Assembly (NCBI GenBank): GCA_022826185.1
Contig: JAJDVH010000056.1
Coordinates: 1 to 59,446, forward strand
Length of the DNA stretch: 59,446 nucleotides
Reading direction: 5' to 3'
DNA from: Alphaproteobacteria bacterium
GTDB lineage: Bacteria; Pseudomonadota; Alphaproteobacteria; Bin95
Positions 1 through 29,121 of this stretch are shown here, piece after piece (the first letter of the stretch is position 1; every line of letters begins with the position of its first letter). The position numbers were made by a program, and so were the translations under genes. The notes below the pieces were generated by a model, which was given only the letters and a program-made list of their open reading frames with translations, did not search any database and was not told the origin of the DNA.

Positions 1-789
<789 letters not shown>

Positions 790-838: not shown

Positions 839-1549
839 TCAGTCCGCGAAACAATCCGCGAGGCGCAGGCGCGCGGCGGGCAGGGGGCGGTCCACGGCTC
901 CGGCGATATGGCGCGCGAGGAAATGGCCCGTCAGCGCGAGGCCGTCGCGAATGTCCGAAGGCGCGAACTCCGGCGCGCCGGAGAGGAACCCCGGCAGGGC
1001 CAGCAGCCGCTCCCGCCACGGCTCGCCCGCCTCGCGCGTGACGGCCCTGCCGGACCGCGGCGACACCCAGGCCAGCCCCGCGCGGGCGCCGGTGACTGCG
1101 CAGCGCTCCAGGTCGAGGCCGAAGCCGAGCTCGGCCAGCAGCGCCACCTCGTAGCCCACATAGGCCGCCGGCCAGGCTTCGCCCGCCAGCGTCTCCAGAA
1201 AGGCGGCGAGCCCGGAGAACGCGGCCGGGTGCGGCTCGCGCTCCGGCAGGCCCATTTCCGCCACCGCGCAGGCGCTCTGGAGCGCCGCCAGCCGCGCCGG
1301 GTCGTCCAGCCAGAGCGCGGCATGGGCCGTCTCCGCCTCGCAGGAAAACGTGCCGAGCTGGTCGCTGAGCCGCGCCCGCCAGCGCACCGTCGCCAGCGTT
1401 CCCGGCTGGAGCGCCTCGGCGTGGCGGCGCGCGCCCTGCACCAGCCCGGCATGGCGTCCATGCGCCTCGGTCAACGCCTGCGCGACGGCCTTGCCCTCCC
1501 CGAAGGGACGGGCCGAGAGCATGACGGCGCGGTCGGTCCAGTCGATCAT
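839..1549 (-). CDS. recO: DNA repair protein RecO
   Basis: 236-aa ORF with the length and sequence character of RecO ([18 protein letters not shown]...). It lies immediately upstream of parC and near era/rnc, as in other alphaproteobacteria. Confidence 0.85.
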
Positions 1550-1634
1550 CGCCGGGCGTCATACCACCGTTCGCCCCCCGGCGCCCCTGCGCCCGCAGCC
1601 GCGCTCCGCCGGCGGCGGCGAGACCCTGCGGAAA

Positions 1635-1660
1635 TGTCATGATCTGTCATGTTCCGTCAT
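1635..1660. promoter_or_regulatory. Array A1: three 10-bp-phased (T/C)GTCAT(G) direct repeats
   Basis: aTGTCATGatcTGTCATGttcCGTCATGg, with repeat starts at 1635, 1645 and 1655. It lies about 90-110 bp upstream of the recO start on the opposite strand. Confidence 0.45.
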
Positions 1661-1833
1661 GGGGCCGGTCTCCGCCCAGGCCGTTCGCAAGGCATTGCAG
1701 CCTCCTTGCCGGTCTGCGGTCCCGGACGTCCCGCCGCCGGAGGAGCGCTCCTCTCGCGCGCATAATGCGCGCCCGGCTGCGCGCGCGCTCGCCCGCCCGC
1801 GCGATAGCGGCGGGGCCGTCCCCTCCCCGTGGA

Positions 1834-1889
1834 TGTCATGTTTCGTCATGAGGAGGCCGTGCGATGTCATGGAATGTCATGTTCGCCAT
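1834..1889. promoter_or_regulatory. Array A2: five phased (T/C)G(T/C)CAT(G) direct repeats
   Basis: TGTCATG (1834), CGTCATG (1844), TGTCATG (1865), TGTCATG (1875) and CGCCATG (1884). The core and helical phasing match arrays A1 and B. Confidence 0.45.
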
Positions 1890-2026
1890 GCGCCGGAAGC
1901 ATGTTCTGCGGTCGATCCGGGCATAAGGCCCCCGTTCCGGACACGTCCCCTGGGTATGTCCTCCGCTTCACCTGGCCTTGCGTCTTCGGCATAAGTCTCT
2001 CCTTTCGAACCCTGTTCGTTCCGTTC

Positions 2027-2331
2027 TCCCCGCCGCCGGTTCCTCCCTGCGGCGGGACCCTGTTTCGCGCGTATCCTGCGCCCGCCTGCGCCCGGGCGCA
2101 GGCGCGCGTTTCGCGGCGGCGCGGTTCGTGCGCCTGATTGCGCCTGCGCGCCCGCGCGAGCGCGAAGGCCCGGGCATCGGGCACACCTGTCCCGTCACCT
2201 TCCCAGGGGCCTTTTCGCGCCGGCGCGAACGGATGCGGCCTCCGGATACCGCCTCCTCCCGGCCTATATAGGCAAGGCGTTCCCTTGGTCAATGCCAAAC
2301 AAGGAATTTTTACAAAATTAAGGAACAAATC
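2027..2331. repeat. Copy A of a ~300-bp conserved non-coding element (candidate sRNA or long leader)
   Basis: Collinear blocks are shared with 28734-29052. ggaccctgt is at 2055 and 28798. ggcgcggttcgYgcgcctgattgc is at 2118-2141 and 28847-28870 (23/24 identical). ttttcgcgccggcgcgaa is at 2212-2229 and 28926-28943 (18/18). cggaYaccgcYtcctcc is at 2243 and 28962. An A/T-rich tail ggaattNtt..aat.aag.aacaaa follows in both. No credible ORF is conserved between the copies. Confidence 0.6.
2265..2292 (-). promoter_or_regulatory. Sigma70-type promoter candidate reading leftwards into element A
   Basis: The minus strand reads TTGACC (2292-2287), a 16-nt spacer, TATATA (2270-2265), then ggccggg and AGGAGG. 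An A/T-rich stretch lies upstream. The homologous position in copy B also carries a near-consensus promoter. Confidence 0.45.
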
Positions 2332-2448: not shown

Positions 2449-2490
2449 GCCGCTACTCGGCCGGCGGCGAAGCGCCGGCCGAGTAGCGGC
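2449..2490. repeat. Perfect 18-bp-stem inverted repeat (hairpin) at the islet boundary
   Basis: gccgctactcggccggcg (2449-2466), a gcgaag loop, then cgccggccgagtagcggc (2473-2490). The arms are exact reverse complements. No T-tract follows on either strand. Confidence 0.7.
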
Positions 2491-2590
2491 TGGTTCGACT
2501 GCCCCGATCCTGTCTTTCCGGGTAAACGCCGTCTTCCGCGCCTCGTCGCTGCGGCATCGCCCAATCGCCGGAAGCACGCCATTGGGATAT

Positions 2591-2612
2591 CCCGCCGCAG
2601 AGTGTCGGCGGG
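2591..2612 (-). terminator. Possible terminator hairpin downstream of the 69-aa gene
   Basis: The 7-bp stem cccgccg / cggcggg (2591-2597 and 2606-2612) lies 8 nt after the stop at 2620. The downstream U-tract is weak. Confidence 0.3.
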
Positions 2613-2619
2613 CGCCGGG

Positions 2620-2829
2620 TCAGTAAAAGGTCCCTAGCGGGATCGTGGCGATGTAGGCTTTCAGCGGTTCCCGGCTATGCTTCGCGATGCACTGGCACAG
2701 CATCGGGATCTGATCCTCGCCGATCCCAAAGCCCCATGGCATCGACTCGCCAAAGATCGCCTCCCACTCGCCTCCGAGGATAGCGAGTTCGTCGGGATCG
2801 TCGCGCAGACCGTCTTCGCCGTCTGCCAT
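2620..2829 (-). CDS. Hypothetical small acidic protein (69 aa)
   Basis: An AGGA Shine-Dalgarno sequence lies 4 nt upstream of the ATG, and the gene starts 7 nt after the stop of the upstream gene, so the arrangement is operonic. I recognise no family. Confidence 0.55.
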   Translation of the reverse strand: MADGEDGLRDDPDELAILGGEWEAIFGESMPWGFGIGEDQIPMLCQCIAKHSREPLKAYIATIPLGTFY

Positions 2830-2836
2830 CGTTCCT

Positions 2837-3031
2837 TCACTTCTTGCCGGAGGTTCCTTGGTTCGGCGGATTTGATGGCGCCTTGGCGGGAGCGCCCTGG
2901 CTGGCCGTGGGCTGGTGCCCGTCCTGCGGTCGCGGCCTGTAGCCGAATGTAACGTCTACAGGCTGGTATCCCCGATTTTGGATTGGTGGCGGTGGCTTCA
3001 CCGGCTTGTCAGACTTGCTCATCGGCATCAT
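2837..3031 (-). CDS. Hypothetical small proline-rich basic protein (64 aa)
   Basis: MMPMSKSDKPVKPPPPIQNRGYQP... The start overlaps the end of the upstream membrane-protein gene, which suggests translational coupling. I recognise no family. Confidence 0.45.
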   Translation of the reverse strand: MMPMSKSDKPVKPPPPIQNRGYQPVDVTFGYRPRPQDGHQPTASQGAPAKAPSNPPNQGTSGKK

Positions 3032-3644
3032 CCTCTGGAGTGTAAGGCCAGAATTCTATCGTCTTGACCTCACCCGGCGCGATGAGAACCCCCTTCGGAC
3101 CGGGCGAGGACCAGCTACCCGTATTATCTATATCGTAAATTTGCTCAATGTAAATGTCACGATTGGTCGGATCAGACGATATGAAGGAGCTCTGCCCGCA
3201 GAAACCGACGAATCGGGTATCATCCTTAAGGGTAACCAAGACCCATTGTTCGGTCATATTCCCGAATTTCCAATCCCATGCTGTTGTGATCGGATGGACA
3301 AGATTGAGGCCGCAACGCTGGAGAAAGCGGTGCAACAAGTTCTTCCTAATATTAATTCCGAGTAAGAGACCGATAAGTGCAGGTCCAATGAAAATCAAGA
3401 TAGACCAGATCACTTCTCTACCATATTCTCGTTCACTCAAACGCTGGATCGGGTCCAGAAGAAGAAACGACAGAGCGTAATAGACAAGGGAAACCGCGAG
3501 ATAGCTCAGAAGCATCGCCGAATGCGATGGCATTCGGCCGGTTACAAATTGAGAACGGACAAATAGGATAATGAGGCCCGGCACAAGGAGGCCCATGGCC
3601 GCATAAAGATTGTTAATGTTGTCGATGGATTTCAGTTGTTCCAA
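3009..3644 (-). CDS. Membrane protein with three N-terminal TM helices and a soluble C-terminal domain (resembles DUF6338, from memory)
   Basis: 211-aa ORF with a TTG start. Hydrophobic segments are LYAAMGLLVPGLIILFV, AMLLSYLAVSLVYYALSFLLL and VIWSILIFIGPALIGLLLGINI. G+C content and codon usage are clearly lower here than in the flanking genes. Confidence 0.7.
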   Translation of the reverse strand: MEQLKSIDNINNLYAAMGLLVPGLIILFVRSQFVTGRMPSHSAMLLSYLAVSLVYYALSFLLLDPIQRLSEREYGREVIWSILIFIGPALIGLLLGINIRKNLLHRFLQRCGLNLVHPITTAWDWKFGNMTEQWVLVTLKDDTRFVGFCGQSSFISSDPTNRDIYIEQIYDIDNTGSWSSPGPKGVLIAPGEVKTIEFWPYTPEDDADEQV

Positions 3645-3678
3645 AGTTCCGCAGTTCCTTCATAGGCGCTGAAACCGT

Positions 3679-4040
3679 TTACTTCCCTGCTTGAAGCATA
3701 GCCCGGCGATTGAACGCCAGCAATTCCCTCAGCGCCTCCGCCTCGCCGATTTCCGCGTTCCAGCCATAGGCCGTAGCCATGGGCATCCAGCGCCGCATAG
3801 GTGTCGGCGAGCCATTGGGGGCGGGCGTTATAGAGGTTCGTCAGGGTTCGCTTGCGGAGTTCCGTCGCGGCTTTCTCGTTGCGGGCGGCGGGCAGGTTTC
3901 TCCCGCCATTCGACCCATTCGGGCGGGTTGAGGCCAGCGGTTGTGCAGTTCGGCGAGGCGGCGGACGGCCTCGGCGATGACGGCCGCCTGCGCGGGCCGC
4001 GTTTCACCGTCGCTGGAGAACCGCCGGGTCCGGCGGGTCG
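3679..4040 (-). pseudogene. Frameshifted C-terminal remnant of a large SAM-dependent DNA methyltransferase (MmeI/type IIG or PglX-like tail)
   Basis: The minus-strand translation needs at least 3 frames: AAVIAEAVRRLAELHNRW / LNPPEWVEWREKPARR / EKAATELRKRTLTNLYNARPQWLADTYAALDA / MATAYGWNAEIGEAEALRELLAFNRRAMLQAGK*. The TLTNLYNxRPxWL...AYGW tail is characteristic of that family. Only about the last 115 codons are present. Confidence 0.65.
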
Positions 4041-4044
4041 CGCC

Positions 4045-4326
4045 CTACCCCGAAGCGAGGGCGTCGAATGTCTCCACATCGACGGCGGGGGAGGTCAGGA
4101 AGCCGACCCCGGTCAGGCGCGTCAGTTTCAGCGAGACCTGCATCGCGGTCTCGACATCCGGCAAGTCAACGATGAGGATGAGGTCGAAGGCCCCGAGCAG
4201 CGCGTATATGCCGACCACCTCGCCGCCGCTCTCGCGGACCACCTCCGCCGCCCGGTCGGTGCGCGATGCGCTGATCCCGTCCATCGACCCCTGCGTGTAT
4301 TTTCCGAGCATGACGAACCTGGCCAT
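4045..4326 (-). CDS. GYD domain-containing protein
   Basis: 93 aa: MARFVMLGKYTQGSMDGISASRTDRAAEVV...GAFDLILIVDLPDVETA matches the GYD family pattern. Confidence 0.75.
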   Translation of the reverse strand: MARFVMLGKYTQGSMDGISASRTDRAAEVVRESGGEVVGIYALLGAFDLILIVDLPDVETAMQVSLKLTRLTGVGFLTSPAVDVETFDALASG

Positions 4327-14613: not shown

Positions 14614-14642
14614 TTGAAATAATGTAACCGGTTGAATATAAT
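14614..14642 (+). promoter_or_regulatory. Near-consensus sigma70 promoter upstream of fic
   Basis: TTGAAA (14614-14619), a 17-nt spacer, then TATAAT (14637-14642), in an A/T-rich intergenic stretch. The first in-frame start candidates follow at 14652-14676. Confidence 0.5.
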
Positions 14643-14651
14643 CACCTTATC

Positions 14652-15848
14652 TTGGATTTGTTTGTGACAAAGACAGTGACAAACCAGCGGCCATACGAAC
14701 GGACACATCCCTGGCTGACCTTTGCCTTCGATCTCGGGCGGCTGCAACATACGGACTGGCTGGCCCTTGGCGAGGCGGCGGCGATGATCGACCGGATCGC
14801 CGGTGCGCCGCTCGACCCGGACATCGCCGAGGAGGTCCACAAGCTCTATCTCGCCAGGGGCGCGCTCGCCACCACCGCCATCGAAGGCAACACGCTCTCG
14901 GAAGAGGAGGCGCGCGGCGTCATCGACGAGACGGCAGCGCTTCCGGCGTCGCGCGCCTATCTCGGGCAGGAAATCCGGAACATCGTCGAAGCGTGCAATC
15001 TTGTGGGGGGCGAGATTGCCGGGCACGGCCGTTTCGCACTGACCGTCGAGAGCATAGAGCGGCTGAACGCCGTGGTGCTCCGCGATCTTGAGGTCGAGGA
15101 CCATGTCGCGCCCGGAAAGGTCCGCGAGGTGAATGTGTCGGTCGGCGGCTACCGCTGCCCGGACCGGCGCGACGCCGCTTTCCTGCTGGACCGGCTTTGC
15201 ACGGTGCTGAACGATTTTCCGCTGCCGGACGGGAACCGCTACGCCTTCTCGATCCTCAAGGCGGTCTTCGCGCATCTCTATTTCGTCTGGATCCATCCCT
15301 TCGGCGACGGCAACGGACGCACGGCGCGGCTGATCGAACTGGCCATCCTGCTGGAAGCGGGCCTGCCTCAGCCCGCCTGCCATCTGCCCAGCAACCATTA
15401 CAATCTCACGCGGACCGAATATTACCGCCAGCTGGCGAGAGCCAGCGAGCGGGAGAACGGCATATACGGCTTCGCAAGCTACGCAATCCGGGGATTTGCG
15501 GACGGGTTGCGCGAACAGGTCGAGGTCATCCGGGAGCATCAGGAAGCGGTCGCCTGGGTCAATTTCGTCCATGAGCAGTTCCGCGAAAGCAGGGGCGCGG
15601 GGGCGCCGAGGCAGCGCGACCTGCTGCTTGCGCTGTCGCGGCAGCCCGGCCCGGTTCCGGTGAACCGCCTGGCGTCTCTCGATGCGACGACCGCTCTGGC
15701 CTACGCGCCGCTTTCGGACCGGACGCTGCTGCGCGATGTCGAGGCGCTGGCGCGGCGCGGCCTTCTGTCGAGCGGTCCGGACGGCGTGCGCGCAAACCGG
15801 GAGCGCATCCGCGCCTTCCTGCCCTGGCGGAACGATCCACCGTCCTGA
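14652..15848 (+). CDS. Fic family protein (class II, with N-terminal inhibitory helix)
   Basis: Fic motif HPFGDGNGRTAR. The inhibitory motif (S/T)xxxE(G/N) is present as TTAIEGN about 140 residues upstream in the same polypeptide. The start is ambiguous (TTG 14652, GTG 14664 or GTG 14676, all in frame). Confidence 0.9.
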   Translation: MDLFVTKTVTNQRPYERTHPWLTFAFDLGRLQHTDWLALGEAAAMIDRIAGAPLDPDIAEEVHKLYLARGALATTAIEGNTLSEEEARGVIDETAALPASRAYLGQEIRNIVEACNLVGGEIAGHGRFALTVESIERLNAVVLRDLEVEDHVAPGKVREVNVSVGGYRCPDRRDAAFLLDRLCTVLNDFPLPDGNRYAFSILKAVFAHLYFVWIHPFGDGNGRTARLIELAILLEAGLPQPACHLPSNHYNLTRTEYYRQLARASERENGIYGFASYAIRGFADGLREQVEVIREHQEAVAWVNFVHEQFRESRGAGAPRQRDLLLALSRQPGPVPVNRLASLDATTALAYAPLSDRTLLRDVEALARRGLLSSGPDGVRANRERIRAFLPWRNDPPS

Positions 15849-17303: not shown

Positions 17304-18434
<1,131 letters not shown>

Positions 18435-24577: not shown

Positions 24578-25035
24578 GGGGCGAGGACGCGCATGAGGAA
24601 ACGCCGGGCCTCGGTACCGATGCCGGGCGCCTGGCTCTCGCGGGGGCCGGCGATATTGAGCCGGACGACATTGTGCTTGCGCAGCCATGCCGCGGCGGCG
24701 GGCGCCTGCGCGCGGCGCGAGAGGTCGGCGATGCGCAGCGGGCGCCCCGTTCGGCGCGCGATGGCGGCCGTCAGCTTCGTGCCGCCGGTGAGCGGCCCCC
24801 GGCAGAGGATCAGCGTCGCGTCGCTGTCGCGGACATTGAGGCGCGTCCGCACCCGGTAGGCCGCGCTCGCCGTCTCGGCGAGGGGATAGCGCTCGGGGAC
24901 CGGGCCGTCCTCGGCGCGCCGCCCGCGCGGGCACCAGCCGCCGACGGCGAGGCCCAGCGCCAGCGCGGCGTCGAGCCCCGCCCGGTCCACGCCGGTCTGC
25001 CCGCCCGAAACGATCTCCTGCACCGGATGCGTCAT
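24574..25035 (-). CDS. YpsA-like SLOG family protein (formerly 'putative molybdenum carrier')
   Basis: IVSGGQTGVDRAGLDAALALGLAVGGWCPRGRRAEDGPVPERYPLAET...NVRDSDATLIL..LTGGT matches the family consensus as I remember it. It is hidden inside the C-terminal part of the 1065-aa track ORF. Confidence 0.75.
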   Translation of the reverse strand: MTHPVQEIVSGGQTGVDRAGLDAALALGLAVGGWCPRGRRAEDGPVPERYPLAETASAAYRVRTRLNVRDSDATLILCRGPLTGGTKLTAAIARRTGRPLRIADLSRRAQAPAAAAWLRKHNVVRLNIAGPRESQAPGIGTEARRFLMRVLAP

Positions 25036-26424: not shown

Positions 26425-27897
26425 ATGCGGATTGCGGTCGGCGGATTTCACCACGAGACCAATACCTTTGCGCCGACAAAGGCAAGCTTCGAGATGTTCC
26501 GCCGCGCCGACGGCTGGCCGGGGCTCTGCCGGGGCGGGGCCGTGCTCGCCGACACGGCCGGCATAAACCTGCCCATCGCGGGCTTCCTGGAGGCGGCGCG
26601 CGCGTCCGGCCGCGACTTCGCGCCGCTGGTCTGGGCCAATGCCAGCCCCTCGGCCGAGGTCGAGGAGGAGGCCTATGAGCGCATCGCCGGCATGATGGTG
26701 GACGACCTCCGGGACGCCGGGCCGGTGGACGCCGTCTATCTGGACCTGCACGGCGCCATGGTCGCGGAGCATCTTGAGGACGGCGAAGGCGAGCTGCTGC
26801 GCCGCGTGCGCGCCGTCATCGGCCCCGATGTGCCGCTGGTGGCAAGCCTCGACCTCCACGCCAATGTCTCGCCGCTGATGGCGGGCCGGGCGGACGCGCT
26901 GACCGTGTTCCGCACCTATCCGCATGTCGATATGGCCGAGACCGGCGCGCGCACGGCCCGCCTGCTGGAGCGCATTCTCGCCGAGGGGCGGCCGGCCAAG
27001 GGGTTCCGGCAGATCCCCTTCCTCATCCCGCTGACCGCGCAATGCACGCTGGTCGAGCCGGCGGCGGGCCTCTATGCGGGTCTGGACGAACGGGAACGGG
27101 GCGCCGTCCGCTCCGTCTCGCTCGCCGGCGGCTTCCCGCTCGCCGACACGCCCGACTGCGGCCCGGCCGCGCTCGCCTATGCCGGCGACGAGCGGAGCGC
27201 GGCGGCCGCGGCCGAGGCGCTGGCGGAGGCGGTGCTGGCGGCGCGCGGGCGCTTTGCCGCCGCCTTCCTCTCGCCGGAAGAAGCGGTGGCGCGCGCCGAC
27301 CGGGCGGGGCGCTCGGGCCGGCCGGTCGTCATTGCGGACAGCTGCGACAATCCGGGCGGAGGCGGCGACGGCGACACCACGGGCCTCTTGCGCGCGCTCG
27401 CGGCCGCGCGGCCGGAAGGCGCGGTGCTGGGCCTGCTGATCGACGGGCAGGCGGCGGCGGCGGCGCATGAGACGGGCGAAGGCGGGCGGCTCTCGCTGGC
27501 GCTTGGCGGGCGTTCCGGCATATCGGGCGACGCGCCGTTCGAGACCGACGCCATCGTGCGCCGGCTGGGCGACGGGAGCTTCACCTGCACGGGGCCCTTC
27601 TATGGCGGCAACCGGATGCAGCTCGGGCCGATGGCGCTGCTGGAGTTGCCGGGCGGCGTGCAGGTCGTTGTCGCCAGCCGCAAGGTGCAGGCGGCCGACC
27701 GGGAGATGTTCCGCCATCTGGGCGTGGAGCCGGCGGACTGCCGCATTCTGGCGCTCAAGAGCTCGGTGCATTTCCGCGCCGATTTCGGGCCGATCGCCGG
27801 CGAGGTGCTGATCGCCGCCGCGCCGGGCCCGGTGGCGGCCGATCCGGGCGCGCTCGCCTTTACCCGGCTTCGCCCCGGCGTGGCGCAGCGGCCCTGA
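26425..27897 (+). CDS. M81 family metallopeptidase (MlrC-like)
   Basis: MRIAVGGFHHETNTF N-terminus with typical MlrC N- and C-terminal domains. Confidence 0.85.
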   Translation: MRIAVGGFHHETNTFAPTKASFEMFRRADGWPGLCRGGAVLADTAGINLPIAGFLEAARASGRDFAPLVWANASPSAEVEEEAYERIAGMMVDDLRDAGPVDAVYLDLHGAMVAEHLEDGEGELLRRVRAVIGPDVPLVASLDLHANVSPLMAGRADALTVFRTYPHVDMAETGARTARLLERILAEGRPAKGFRQIPFLIPLTAQCTLVEPAAGLYAGLDERERGAVRSVSLAGGFPLADTPDCGPAALAYAGDERSAAAAAEALAEAVLAARGRFAAAFLSPEEAVARADRAGRSGRPVVIADSCDNPGGGGDGDTTGLLRALAAARPEGAVLGLLIDGQAAAAAHETGEGGRLSLALGGRSGISGDAPFETDAIVRRLGDGSFTCTGPFYGGNRMQLGPMALLELPGGVQVVVASRKVQAADREMFRHLGVEPADCRILALKSSVHFRADFGPIAGEVLIAAAPGPVAADPGALAFTRLRPGVAQRP

Positions 27898-28549
27898 AGA
27901 AAGGCAGCAGCGCGATCCCGGCCGCGAAGCCGCCGATATGCGCCCACCAGGCGACCTTCGCGTCCTCGCCGAAGGTGGAGAGCCCGAGGAAGAACTGCAC
28001 CGCGAACCATCCCGCCACCAGCAGCCAGGCCGGCAGGCGCAGCGGCACGACGAAGAACAGCACCAGGATGCGCGCCCGCGGGCTCAGCACCAGATAGGCC
28101 CCCAATATGCCCGATATCGCCCCGCTCGCCCCGATCAGCGGCACCGCGGAGGAGGGGTCCGTCAGCCCGTGCGCGAGCGCGGCCAGCACGCCGCAAAGCA
28201 GGAAGAACAGGGCGAAGCGCAGATGGCCCATCGCGTCCTCGACATTGTCGCCGAAGATGTAGAGATAGGCCATGTTGCCGAGCAGGTGCGCGAAGTCCCC
28301 GTGCAGGAACTGCGTCGTCACCAGCGAGAAGGACGCCGGCAGGATGGCGAGGTCGGGACGCAGTTGCAGCTCGCCCAGCAGCCGCCCCGGCACGAAGCCG
28401 AGCGCCAGCAGCCGGCGGTATTCCATGGCTTCCGGCAGGCTCGACTGCCAGATGAACGCGACGACGCAGAGCAGGATCGCCCCCCAGGTGACGTAAGGCG
28501 TCTCGATGCGCGTGCGCTCATTGTCGTCATGGATCGGCATGAACGGCAT
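27860..28549 (-). CDS. Rhomboid family intramembrane serine protease
   Basis: Multi-TM protein with HLLGNM, a GASGAISG catalytic serine motif and a downstream AHIGG histidine. Confidence 0.88.
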   Translation of the reverse strand: MPFMPIHDDNERTRIETPYVTWGAILLCVVAFIWQSSLPEAMEYRRLLALGFVPGRLLGELQLRPDLAILPASFSLVTTQFLHGDFAHLLGNMAYLYIFGDNVEDAMGHLRFALFFLLCGVLAALAHGLTDPSSAVPLIGASGAISGILGAYLVLSPRARILVLFFVVPLRLPAWLLVAGWFAVQFFLGLSTFGEDAKVAWWAHIGGFAAGIALLPFFRAAAPRRGEAG

Positions 28550-28696: not shown

Positions 28697-28722
28697 GGTC
28701 ATGTTTTGTCATGTTTTGTCAT
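28697..28722. promoter_or_regulatory. Array B: three 10-bp-phased (G/T)GTCATG direct repeats
   Basis: gGTCATGttttGTCATGttttGTCATGtt, with repeat starts at 28697, 28707 and 28717. It lies about 150 bp upstream of the rhomboid start on the opposite strand and directly adjoins element copy B. Confidence 0.45.
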
Positions 28723-28733
28723 GTTCCCTCCTT

Positions 28734-29052
28734 GCGGCGGCCTTTCCTCCGCCGGGTTTCGTTGCCTTCGTGTTCCCGGCCGCCGGACCGGGAGCGCGGA
28801 CCCTGTACCGCGCGCAATCGCCTGCGCGCGGGCGGGTGTCGGCGCCGGCGCGGTTCGCGCGCCTGATTGCCCGCGCATGCGAGGCGGGCGCAGGACGCAC
28901 GTCTCCCGTCGGTTCCTTCGGGTTTTTTTCGCGCCGGCGCGAAACGGAAGAAGCGGCGCCGCGGACACCGCTTCCTCCTACCCTCATTGTAGCACACTTC
29001 GCCAGAATGCAAGCCCACAACGGGGAATTGTTTCGAGAATCAAGAACAAACA
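28734..29052. repeat. Copy B of the ~300-bp conserved non-coding element
   Basis: See copy A (2027-2331). The same ordered sequence blocks and the same A/T-rich tail are present. Confidence 0.6.
28986..29013 (-). promoter_or_regulatory. Sigma70-type promoter candidate reading leftwards into element B
   Basis: The minus strand reads cTTGCAt (29013-29007), a 15-16-nt spacer, TACAAT (28991-28986), then gagggt and AGGAGG. The position is homologous to the promoter in copy A. Confidence 0.4.
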
Positions 29053-29121
29053 ACGTATTCCTGCCGGGGTGACGATTGCGGGGCCGGTGTGCGATGCGGC
29101 CCGGTTCAAGGGGATGCGGCG

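Follow-up and report, generated by a model that had tools for sequence, protein, structure and literature searches.

Phased CATGACA repeat arrays ahead of recO close a multicopy promoter-leader-ORF cassette in uncultured Alphaproteobacteria

In the window, i.e. the whole stretch of 59,446 nts that was analysed, three arrays of short direct repeats are found ahead of recO (locus A, arrays A1 and A2) and of a putative rhomboid gene (locus B, array B). These arrays form the terminal module of a lineage-specific multicopy cassette, which comprises an AT-rich box and promoter, a leader of about 200–250 nts, an ORF led by a Shine-Dalgarno (SD) sequence and three CATGACA+N3 units that close this ORF; of this architecture we are highly confident. 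The cassette is a previously undescribed promoter-leader-ORF-repeat unit, and a literature search for its repeat and core sequences returned no published description. Judging by association, the array may be a phased DNA site for an oligomeric protein resembling phage terminase small subunits (TerS) and act as the 3' boundary of the cassette, a reading that we favour while giving it somewhat less than an even chance.

The first-pass annotation of this DNA had reported three arrays with a common core, orientation and 10-bp phasing, and these are real. Read directly on the plus strand, array A1 has TGTCATG at 1635 and 1645 and CGTCATG at 1655, array A2 has TGTCATG at 1834, 1865 and 1875 and CGTCATG at 1844, and array B has GGTCATG at 28697 followed by TGTCATG at 28707 and 28717. 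A2 had been described as five repeats, which holds for the units at 1834, 1844, 1865 and 1875 but not for the one at 1884, which is degenerate (CGCCATG) and only 9 bp from its neighbour; the array consists of two pairs, 21 bp apart. In all, 10 of the 11 array units in the window are perfect. GTCATG pairs exactly 10 bp apart occur six times versus a mean of 0.003 in 300 first-order Markov simulations, and YGTCATG is present 32 times where 14.2 ± 3.9 copies are expected. All arrayed copies lie on the plus strand, the cassettes being read on the minus strand. The arrays are non-random. The parts of the two loci are as follows.

2303–2316, minus strand: locus A AT-rich near-palindromic box TTTGTAAAAATTCC, about 10 bp upstream of the -35 hexamer (from an alignment of 41 element copies)
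2265–2292, minus strand: locus A sigma-70-type promoter, TTGACC (2287–2292), 16-nt spacer, TATATA (2265–2270) (from the same 41-copy alignment)
2055–2259, minus strand: locus A conserved GC-rich leader with 5' stem-loop (2231–2259), invariant core GCAATCAGGCGCACGAACCGCGCC (2118–2141) and end motif AACAGGGTCC (2055–2064)
1867–2005, minus strand: locus A SD AAAGGAGAG and 41-codon ORF (1992 to 1867), with its stop inside array A2
1877–1924, minus strand: locus A nested 15-codon ORF MPGSTAEHASGAWRT (1924 to 1877), member of a recurrent 15-codon family
1834–1890, minus strand: array A2, CATGACA-type units at 1875–1881, 1865–1871, 1844–1850 and 1834–1840, degenerate unit offset by 9 bp at 1884–1890
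1662–1833, minus strand: locus A "mid" module, conserved palindrome GCGCGCATTATGCGCGC (1756–1772) and SD-led mini-ORF MPCERPGRRPAP
1635–1661, minus strand: array A1, CATGACG-gaa-CATGACA-gat-CATGACA, read from the sequence
839–1549, minus strand: recO, first host gene downstream of cassette A (Pfam RecO_N and RecO_C on an identical protein)
28986–29041, minus strand: locus B AT-rich box (29024–29041) and promoter (TTGCAT, 29007–29012; TACAAT, 28986–28991)
28798–28978, minus strand: locus B conserved leader with 5' stem-loop (28946–28978), core GCAATCAGGCGCGCGAACCGCGCC (28847–28870) and TACAGGGTCC (28798–28807)
28697–28734, minus strand: array B, CATGACA-aaa-CATGACA-aaa-CATGACC, with SD AAGGAGGG, read from the sequence
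27860–28549, minus strand: putative rhomboid-family gene (an ORF, named so by an earlier reader), first host gene downstream of cassette B

The element upstream of the arrays is shared by locus A (about 1990–2345) and locus B (about 28790–29075) with 67 % mean column identity, invariant blocks included. In the 41-copy alignment the AT-rich box keeps its position and a GAAAnAATTCC-like consensus, and the promoter is conserved as CTTGAC-N15-17-TAnnAT. A generic promoter and terminator scanner gave nothing useful and did not call the locus A promoter, which was recognised only through this alignment. The window itself is ordinary chromosome; MlrC-type and MR_MLE-type genes are neighbours of the putative rhomboid gene. 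A variable island adjoins the 5' side of locus A.

The small ORFs of locus A run into the arrays and recur elsewhere. The 15-codon family (MPExxTxYAPxAC/WxT*) is also found at L008, L022, L023, L026, L034, L086, L089, L116 and L117, and its TGA is the first CATGA of an array. The “mid” module lies ahead of arrays at L011 (twice), L034, L036, L074, L077 (twice), L086 and L091 as well, with AAGGAGG-N5-ATG kept in all these copies; in the window its SD and ATG cover 1693–1708 and its ORF, from 1695 to 1657, ends at the first TGA of array A1. This array, which contains ATG and TGA in all three frames, is identical in four metagenome assemblies of the window species, including the divergent strain L002. 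The ATG of its second unit (1650) starts a 34-codon ORF whose TGA (1546–1548) overlaps the ATG of recO (1547–1549). At locus B, the mini-ORF MTKHDKT (28722 to 28699) with AAGGAGGG ahead of its ATG is present just as previously claimed.

A scan of 185,579 species genomes for the array pattern only, with a minimum of three units, yielded at least 113 loci. Some 85 of these belong to a single set of MAGs from uncultured Alphaproteobacteria, in which a genome has many such loci. On the 4.6-Mb chromosome OY730441, at least 12 array loci are dispersed. The element of about 300 bp (AT-rich box, sigma-70-type promoter and conserved GC-rich leader) was detected by nhmmer in 52 loci that had been fetched by their array; of 62 arrays, 61 are found downstream of the element on its own strand and none on the other. 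The order element, array, next gene that had been noticed at both window loci is thus a genuine conserved architecture. The stretch from element to array contains SD-led mini-ORFs (so in the window), further ORFs or a TerS-like gene that is multicopy. The minus-strand unit is CATGACA+N3, usually present three times, and neighbouring units are spaced by 10 nts in 234 of 260 pairs and by 11 nts in only two. Array sizes (88 with three units, 10 with four and 28 secondary arrays with two) follow a distribution biased by the search pattern of at least three units. The array edges are sharp, so that degenerate flanking units, inspected for retained ATGA or GACA, were uninformative; the spacers are A/T-rich and position-specific (unit 1 is A-rich and YNYC follows the last unit). 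Arrays are found 13–1800 bp downstream of a complete -35/-10 promoter and, in relatives, at the 3' ends of genes. The motif TGGAGTGGGCCC follows the arrays in 10 loci but not in the window. The arrays have ordinary housekeeping genes as neighbours, and the genes downstream look heterogeneous: among 34 judged by eye from their translations are a tRNA synthetase, an amidase and GST, SDR and TRAP genes.

Copies of the cassette can be very similar within a genome. L028 and L078 share 98 % identity from exactly the -35 box to the last CATGACA, and in L116 a 302-bp module is repeated in tandem. Conservation in relatives, which had been proposed as a check, was found both in the divergent strain of the window species and at orthologous loci of different species (L014/L040, L033/L035 and L075/L112). 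With nearly always three units, position-specific spacers and conservation across species, the arrays do not behave as a simple tandem-repeat expansion, an outcome that had been named as speaking against a function. For the leader RNA, RNAalifold predicts 22 pairs, four of them with compensatory changes; since this covariation is only modest, we do not claim a new structured RNA class. A search of the whole window against Rfam 15 gave no match at gathering score, and at E ≤ 5 only chance-level matches appeared at both loci, among them a weak CcsR1 match on the opposite strand.

What ties the arrays to a protein is a gene of 320–490 amino acids which, at 10 loci, ends inside the array. Its product matches Pfam Terminase_2 (PF03592, E = 1e-11, residues 11–72) as well as the PHROG terminase small subunit. 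Clustered at 90 % identity, the family makes up at least 304 clusters, and single genomes have several paralogues. In each of the 44 members aligned, the protein ends in P-x-H-D-x-x*, i.e. in the CAT GAC of the array, and the helix-turn-helix (HTH) has the invariant recognition helix SARQTG. Diverged subfamilies end in HDxS/T or contain array translations of the MTxHDIS type. No co-variation is seen between site and protein: the core stays CATGAC although the recognition helix differs between subfamilies (SARQTGC/H versus ARQQGY).

The structural model of the TerS-like protein is confident over the N-terminal 100 residues or so (pLDDT about 90 for the N-terminal domain) and low over the remainder. 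In Foldseek this model superimposes on the SF6 DNA-binding domain (4zc3, TM 0.85, rmsd 1.6 Å, 41 % identity; also 3zqq), and profile searches of the PDB returned 4zc3, 2cmp and 3zqp. Phage TerS proteins align to residues 7–122, which correspond to the DNA-binding domain and the start of the oligomerisation helices, and the model has a long helix at 52–106. The linked protein thus fits a terminase small subunit, with an N-terminal HTH domain followed by predicted oligomerisation helices. Its genomic context is chromosomal: LysR, aldolase, CoA-transferase, GNAT, ADH and EamA genes are neighbours, and at L041 IS110-family and DDE transposase genes flank it. No TerL, capsid or other phage genes were found near arrays or TerS-like genes in the loci annotated. 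A scan of IMG/VR for the array gave 21 unrelated iteron-like matches and none of the CATGACA type, and a scan for the protein only three distant N-terminal matches. A literature search for multicopy TerS in sponge symbionts yielded nothing relevant.

According to the favoured explanation, three phased invariant heptamers with bendable A/T-rich spacers would offer a site to adjacent HTH domains of a TerS-like oligomer, the protein being supplied in trans by the full-length copies of the cassette. In TerS rings the HTH motifs are about one turn of B-DNA apart and the DNA has been proposed to wrap around the ring (PMC4737164). The earlier idea that repeats one helical turn apart form a phased protein-binding site is still suggested by the strict 10-nt spacing, as a predicted site. 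Sitting on the 3' edge of the cassette, with the cassette promoter on one side and the next gene on the other, the complex might serve as a mark or insulator at the end of the unit; it could block read-through into recO or the putative rhomboid gene, or be a pac-like recognition point, and the ATGA core would, as a built-in side effect, stop translation in three frames. The two window copies, with mini-ORFs only, could then be derivatives without a TerS-like gene by which recO and the putative rhomboid gene are driven or gated. Lineage-wide dispersal, the fixed architecture, discrete spacing, the protein link and its fold, duplication as a unit and conservation all argue for this explanation. 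Against it, no TerS-like gene is encoded in the 59 kb of the window, only about 12 % of the sampled arrays are attached to one, and array core and recognition helix do not co-vary. Moreover, binding of pac DNA by the SF6 DNA-binding domain in isolation is weak and non-specific (PMC4737164), so that an invariant 7-bp site would be atypical for the family, and since neither phage genes nearby nor a phage contig with the array were seen, a packaging role would lack a visible partner. A bolder and in our opinion unlikely extension is that a domesticated, amplified phage small terminase and dozens of triple-CATGACA sites form a chromosome-wide network, either of pac-like entry points for gene transfer agents (GTA) or phage particles, or of a TerS-ring insulator or regulator of the shared promoter-leader cassette.

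The sense orientation, the ATGA core and the SD-led ORFs that enter the arrays are explained equally well or better by a function at the level of RNA or translation. The main rival, which we consider somewhat unlikely, sees the array in the mRNA as a universal element for stopping and restarting ribosomes, which would uncouple or recouple downstream translation. Because three ATGA units are spaced by 10 nts (10 = 1 mod 3), each reading frame contains one TGA and one ATG, so that a ribosome coming from the cassette ORFs would terminate at the array and could re-initiate. The orientation relative to the promoter (61/62), the presence of exactly three units in most arrays and the SD-led ORF that precedes, and ends in, every window array all agree with this, as do the conserved SD and ATG of recurring mini-ORF families, the stop codon that the array supplies to all TerS-like genes, the ATGA overlap by which the ORF from the second ATG of A1 meets recO, and a mini-ORF (L011b) kept open to the array by compensating +1/-1 indels. 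We calculate that ATGA is present in fewer than 2 % of random heptamers, and the TAACTGA heptamer repeats, for which a post-transcriptional role has been proposed, are a partial analogue (PMC4679880). Such a device would, however, only need ATGA, whereas C and CA on either side of it are just as invariant, and spacings of 7, 8 or 11 nts would serve as well as the strict 10. In addition, the 28 two-unit arrays miss some frames, the next gene is convergent after one third of the arrays (29/90), and an array ATG shares its frame with the downstream ORF in 26 of 61 cases, about what we would expect by chance at 70 % GC. Variable sites in the MPCERPP mini-ORF (4, 5 and 10 at codon positions 1, 2 and 3) are suggestive but not significant (chi-square p about 0.2). 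Alternatively, the AU-rich triple CAUGACA, exposed between GC-rich hairpins, could be the site of an oligomeric RNA-binding protein or the target of a sequence-specific endoribonuclease that controls the stability or translation of the cassette and downstream-gene transcript. This is doubtful in our view: strict sense orientation, a seven-nucleotide core invariant at a fixed distance, structured GC-rich sequence before the array and a G-rich then C-rich stretch directly after it would suit such a site, but no candidate RNA-binding protein is linked to the arrays and no Rfam family matches. DNA rather than RNA is indicated since the spacing equals one DNA helical turn and the linked gene encodes a DNA-binding protein.

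The arrays had originally been read as upstream operators through which PhoB or another OmpR-family regulator would control recO and the putative rhomboid gene, and this we now regard as highly improbable. The core does resemble a Pho half-site (CTGTCAT at 1644–1650), and OmpR-type sites are tandem 10-bp half-sites; in Streptomyces (L072), an OmpR-family gene even has three copies of CATGACGTCA about 50 bp ahead of it, so that such arrays can accompany response regulators elsewhere. Yet the arrays are placed inside the transcription unit, downstream of the conserved promoter and at gene 3' ends rather than at a -35 position, no AT-rich -10-like box follows them, and the core is ATGACA when read along recO, opposite to a canonical Pho box. 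At 10 nts, the period also differs from the 11 (7+4) of a Pho box. No Pho genes were recognised among the 34 downstream genes, neither the window nor the surroundings of any alphaproteobacterial array locus contain an OmpR/PhoB-family gene, and the arrays are tightly linked to a different DNA-binding protein family, the TerS-like one. Very unlikely, though less so, is that units of promoter, leader and array lacking a TerS-like gene have arisen from the full-length unit by decay or as MITE-like derivatives, with gene conversion maintaining their similarity and no function of their own at recO or the putative rhomboid gene. Multicopy dispersal, near-identical copies with sharp boundaries, the tandem modules of L116, remnants of cargo ORFs between element and array and the variable island beside locus A would fit such relics. 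On the other hand, loci A and B have diverged to about 67 % identity overall while the promoter and core blocks and all but one of the 11 array units stayed perfect, and arrays are retained at orthologous loci across species. Moreover, neither terminal inverted repeats nor target-site duplications were seen by eye at the L028 and L078 flanks, and most of the copies checked have no transposase beside them, L041 being the exception.

Should the array prove to be the cognate site of the TerS-like protein, a viral module for packaging recognition (terS and repeat site) would exist as a multicopy chromosomal family free of other phage genes, with gene-less copies wired ahead of housekeeping genes such as recO, and a TerS network would mean a new role for TerS. 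It would also open a route to sequence recognition by small terminases, a site of three invariant 7-bp units being far better defined than SPP1/SF6 pac, and to gene transfer or global regulation in uncultured Alphaproteobacteria, some of which come from sponges according to their MAG names. Were the function translational instead, a three-frame cassette for stopping and restarting, with its own promoter and structured leader, would be an undescribed regulatory device. The annotation of these MAGs is affected through mini-ORFs, false N-terminal extensions and TerS genes mis-annotated as prophage.

Several known systems share features with the cassette. With Pho boxes and OmpR half-sites, the arrays have in common short, helically phased direct repeats and a TGTCAT-like core, but they differ in period (10 versus 11 bp), in their location inside the transcription unit or at gene ends, in their opposite orientation and in lacking regulon logic or a nearby regulator. 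The parC/ParR centromeres, iterons and lambda-type arm sites are direct repeats phased by about 10 bp that small DNA-binding proteins occupy cooperatively. CATGACA sites are, in contrast, chromosomal, dispersed over many loci and made of three units each, and no partition, replication or integrase genes are present among the annotated neighbours. BIME/REP, Correia, ERIC and RIME are intergenic elements, modular and dispersed in many copies, through which host genes can acquire promoters. The cassette is likewise dispersed, modular and multicopy; unlike MITEs and mosaic repeats, however, it showed no terminal inverted repeats or target duplications at the L028 and L078 flanks, follows a directional order from promoter through leader and ORF to array, and in its full-length form encodes a conserved protein under purifying selection.

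The TAACTGA repeats of Beggiatoaceae, Cyanobacteria and Bacteroidetes are lineage-restricted and occur as many sets per genome with 2–6 copies per set (MacGregor 2015, PMC4679880). Like the CATGACA arrays they are intergenic, contain stop codons, adjoin unrelated genes and have no assigned binding factor, but they are contiguous 7-nt units located just upstream of start codons, whereas CATGACA cores have 3-nt spacers (period 10), nearly always number three, lie inside a promoter-leader cassette and are linked to a protein family. SPP1/SF6-like phages with pac and G1P, finally, offer a homologous DNA-binding domain (4zc3, 2cmp, 3zqq) and a recognition region made of direct-repeat sets at the terS gene; repeats lie at the TerS-like gene in relatives too (10 loci; all 44 clusters end inside an array), though not within the window. 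The TerS-like gene differs in being chromosomal, multicopy and solitary, without TerL or capsid genes: an adjacent packaging module of terL, portal and capsid is absent from the loci annotated, and most arrays have no neighbouring terS-like gene. The protein is twice as long as SPP1/SF6 G1P, with a conserved middle region and an acidic tail. Lastly, the cassette repeats are placed at the 3' end of the gene, versus the promoter and 5' end in the phage, and their core is an invariant 7-bp heptamer present three times.

Re-reading the sequence found the TGTCATG-type direct repeats upstream of recO (arrays A1 and A2, locus A) and of a rhomboid-family gene (array B, locus B) at the positions first reported, with one reservation. 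A2 had been described as five repeats; the four units from 1834 to 1875 hold, but the one at 1884 is a degenerate CGCCATG lying 9 bp from its neighbour.

Repeat arrays (read from the sequence, plus-strand reading) and the genes downstream of them
1635, 1645 and 1655, plus strand: array A1, TGTCATG twice, then CGTCATG
1834, 1844, 1865 and 1875, plus strand: array A2, TGTCATG, CGTCATG, then TGTCATG twice
28697, 28707 and 28717, plus strand: array B, GGTCATG, then TGTCATG twice
839-1549, minus strand: recO, downstream of the locus A arrays
27860-28549, minus strand: rhomboid-family gene, downstream of array B

The plus strand carries every arrayed copy, and A2 consists of two pairs with 21 bp between them. 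The window has six GTCATG pairs at exactly 10 bp, where 300 Markov simulations gave a mean of 0.003; the heptamer overall occurs at about twice its expected frequency. Read on the minus strand, where recO and the rhomboid-family gene are encoded, the unit is CATGAC(A/G) plus 3 nt.

A scan of one genome per species (185,579 species) with the pattern CATGACR-N3-CATGACR-N3-CATGAC returned at least 113 loci. About 85 among the listed loci belong to one coherent set of uncultured Alphaproteobacteria MAGs, some labelled Rhodospirillaceae and several sponge-derived by name; the other listed matches (Streptomyces, Dyadobacter, Planctomycetota and others) are microsatellite-like, with identical units. 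Many loci can occur in one genome, for example at least 12 dispersed on the 4.6-Mb chromosome OY730441. Within the alphaproteobacterial set, 234 of 260 pairs of adjacent CATGAC cores show a 10-nt period, and arrays have three units (88) or four (10), with 28 secondary arrays of two. The spacers are A/T-rich and position-specific, the first being mostly AAA or GAA; after the last unit come YNYC and then G-rich and C-rich sequence, and the positions flanking the array do not hold degenerate units. The array therefore forms a discrete, composite site, about 30 bp long, and not a tandem repeat that expands freely. At ten loci (L009, L018, L032, L036, L037, L059, L067, L080, L086 and L089) a second motif, TGGAGTGGGCCC, stands immediately after the array or, in L086, takes its place; it is absent from the window. 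A 97-kb IMG/VR viral contig (L132) carries two inverted arrays of three CATGACAGGT units (618-643, minus strand; 1045-1070, plus strand) about 400 bp apart, which have the look of iterons or operators and no relation to the alphaproteobacterial family.

Comparison of locus A with locus B bore out the proposal that they share an upstream element. When the window's two copies were compared with loci fetched through the array pattern alone, the element was found in 52 of the latter. Of the 62 arrays there, 61 have their nearest element upstream on the same strand, and no array is on the strand opposite to its element. In an alignment of 41 copies the first part is a near-palindrome rich in AT (GAAAnAATTCC-like), separated by about 10 bp from the -35 box of the CTTGAC-N15-17-TAnnAT promoter that comes after it. 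Next are a 5' stem-loop showing compensatory changes, a second, variable hairpin, the nearly invariant leader blocks ACGGGAGAgGTGCGCCCT and GCAATCAGGCGCGCGAACCGCGCC, and the end motif ACGCGCGAAACAGGGTC. Since only 4 of the 22 pairs drawn by RNAalifold show double-sided changes, we describe the element as a conserved promoter and plausibly structured leader, not as a proven RNA family. More distant genomes are without the long leader, yet their arrays are preceded, at 40-90 nt, by a similar promoter.

Between leader and array lie 13 to about 1800 bp, occupied by (a) mini-ORFs led by a ribosome-binding motif (SD) and ending in the array, (b) a 209-222-aa protein (MTATDPRPQ...) with no family assigned, (c) occasionally an ordinary host gene, or (d) a 320-490-aa protein with an N-terminal terminase-small-subunit HTH domain. 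Three mini-ORF families recur: a 15-codon MPExxTxYAPxAC/WxT-stop, MQEWNG...AWR(T/P)-stop, and MPCERPPDRRKRPGRRPAP-stop, the last within a conserved stretch of some 200 bp, the "mid" module. Both window copies are of type (a).

Order of parts on the minus strand
Locus A: promoter and leader, SD-led 41-codon ORF (with a nested 15-codon ORF), A2, mid module, A1, recO
Locus A mid module: palindrome GCGCGCATTATGCGCGC (1756-1772) and SD-led ORF MPCERPGRRPAP
Locus B: promoter, leader, AAGGAGGG, array B (MTKHDKT-stop), rhomboid gene

In almost all of the 11 mid-module copies that stand between two arrays (L011, L034, L036, L074, L077, L086), the palindrome hardly varies; in L091 it has diverged. It may act as an operator or form a hairpin. 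In L116, a record labelled Bryobacterales whose contig may be mis-binned, the distal leader half, mini-ORF and array stand in four tandem copies with a period of about 302 bp (1000-2300, oriented).

The window organism is uncultured, and an identical RecO protein was found on four metagenome contigs. Locus A sits in an ordinary chromosomal cluster (pdxJ-acpS-lepB-rnc-era ... recO-parC), and the remaining genes are housekeeping or metabolic (SpoT/RelA, PrmA, a DNA methyltransferase with RAMA domain, MFS, MlrC, MR_MLE, TRAP transporter, acyl-CoA dehydrogenase); the window annotation contains no phage genes. The divergent strain L002 has a wholly different gene island from the GYD-domain gene to about window position 2455, and the element and all arrays are nearly unchanged in it. 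This island (window 2490-4040, L002 2600-5100), flanked by the GYD-domain gene (4045-4326, minus strand) and, next to its 5' side, by cassette A, resembles a hot-spot of integration or defence. In the window, L001 and L003 it holds a low-GC (49%) DUF6338 gene (3009-3644, minus strand) and a 69-aa ORF (2620-2829, minus strand); in L002 it holds five other ORFs, one with a weak Nuc_deoxyrib_tr match. Near the point where strain similarity resumes, a near-perfect 19-bp GC-rich inverted repeat (2447-2491, CGCCGCTACTCGGCCGGCG...GCCGGCCGAGTAGCGGC) may be the terminator of a small plus-strand ORF or an island boundary. That short ORF (2385-2483, ...EQGLAEVRGKLTFVRNYILRRYSAGGEAPAE-stop), divergent from the cassette promoter and kept in L002 with synonymous changes, is similar to the C-terminal end of a small membrane protein with a coiled coil (...GRLEGKMDFVYDYIMRRNDPAPAAE) encoded downstream of an array in L081, and may be a gene remnant. 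Elsewhere, ARAGORN calls an 89-nt tRNA-Ala(CGC) (24681-24769, plus strand) opposite the long open frame that precedes the Pfam-matched region of the MFS transporter gene; because of its atypical length, the call may be a false positive. A Fic/DOC-family gene (14628-15845, plus strand) and the N6/N4 DNA methyltransferase with C-terminal RAMA domain (17307-18434, minus strand), possibly CcrM-like, are separated by 1.3 kb, in which an amidohydrolase gene lies.

The type (d) protein resembles the phage terminase small subunit (TerS): it matches Pfam Terminase_2 (E = 1e-11) and the PHROG terminase small subunit, and its family profile matches the SF6/SPP1-type G1P DNA-binding domains 4zc3, 2cmp and 3zqp in the PDB. 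The AlphaFold model is confident only for residues ~11-106 (HTH and long helices), Foldseek retrieves 4zc3 (TM 0.85, rmsd 1.6 A, 41% identity), and phage TerS proteins align to residues 7-122 with 28-36% identity. The family comprises at least 304 clusters at 90% identity, with several paralogues on single chromosomes amid unrelated housekeeping genes (LysR, aldolase, CoA-transferase, GNAT, others); a profile search of 1.84 billion representatives gave 50 clusters below 1e-30. About 270 residues are strongly conserved, the recognition helix SARQTG is invariant, and the tail is hypervariable, acidic or basic. One genome has two copies that are 98% identical over a stretch beginning at the -35 box and ending precisely with the last CATGACA. 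The C-terminus of each of the 44 aligned members reads P-x-H-D-x-x-stop; the frame therefore enters the array and stops at the second TGA. Diverged subfamilies end in HD(K/E/I/G)(S/T) or carry array translations (MTNHDISLH, MTKHDIPEGVAA) inside or at the C-terminus, and more distant phage-like TerS proteins show neither feature. One diverged copy (L030 315-1265, minus strand; 45% identity), apparently frameshifted in the HTH region and still ending in an array (...AEAHDGT-stop), may be a pseudogene or an assembly error. The window contains no TerS-like gene.

As a module, the array is conserved, discrete and fixed in its strand; it sits at the 3' edge of a transcription unit present in many copies and is inseparable from one HTH protein family. 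We infer that it may be the DNA site of the TerS-like protein. TerS proteins of this fold form ring oligomers with HTH motifs about one helical turn apart, around which DNA has been proposed to wrap, and the SPP1 pac region consists of sets of direct repeats at the terS gene; the isolated SF6 DNA-binding domain binds weakly and non-specifically (PMC4737164). Three invariant heptamers at exactly 10 bp, with bendable A/T spacers, would suit a row of three neighbouring HTHs. Where the cassette has no gene, as in both window copies, the array stands between a strong-looking promoter and the host gene, and because of this position a bound complex could gate read-through into recO or the rhomboid gene. 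No co-variation of recognition helix and array core was found among the TerS-like subfamilies, and no packaging partner genes are visible.

The main rival, which is compatible with a DNA site, places the function of the array in translation. Three ATGA at 10 nt provide one stop and one start per frame, the orientation is always sense, and SD-led ORFs run into the arrays; at A1, moreover, the ATG of unit 2 opens a 34-codon ORF (1546-1650, minus strand) whose TGA overlaps the recO start (ATGA, 1546-1549), a possible translational coupling with a chance estimate of roughly 1 in 10. Against such a role speak the additional invariant bases beyond ATGA, the strict 10-nt spacing and the existence of two-unit arrays. 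The PhoB/OmpR-type operator proposed in the first-pass annotation is not supported: the period is 10 and not 11, the arrays come after the promoter or sit where genes end and have no -10 box behind them, the next gene is convergent in 29 of 90 cases, and the downstream genes are, judged by eye, heterogeneous. With E. coli PhoB as query no OmpR-family gene was found near the alphaproteobacterial arrays, and the window holds no response regulator. That model might apply to an unrelated system in Streptomyces sp. (L072 5990-6100), where three CATGACGTCA copies with degenerate flanking units precede a response-regulator gene of the OmpR family by about 50 bp.

Array or cassette sequences were found in no paper by literature search, Rfam has no family containing them or the upstream element, and no phage or viral contig in IMG/VR carries the alphaproteobacterial arrays. 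Among published elements, the closest in kind is a heptamer repeat, TAACTGA, described from Beggiatoaceae and cyanobacteria (PMC4679880). Phased repeats as protein sites, and the pairing of terS with a recognition site, are known kinds. What is unprecedented is the chromosomal, multicopy, cassette-like setting in which these repeats and the terS-site pairing occur here.
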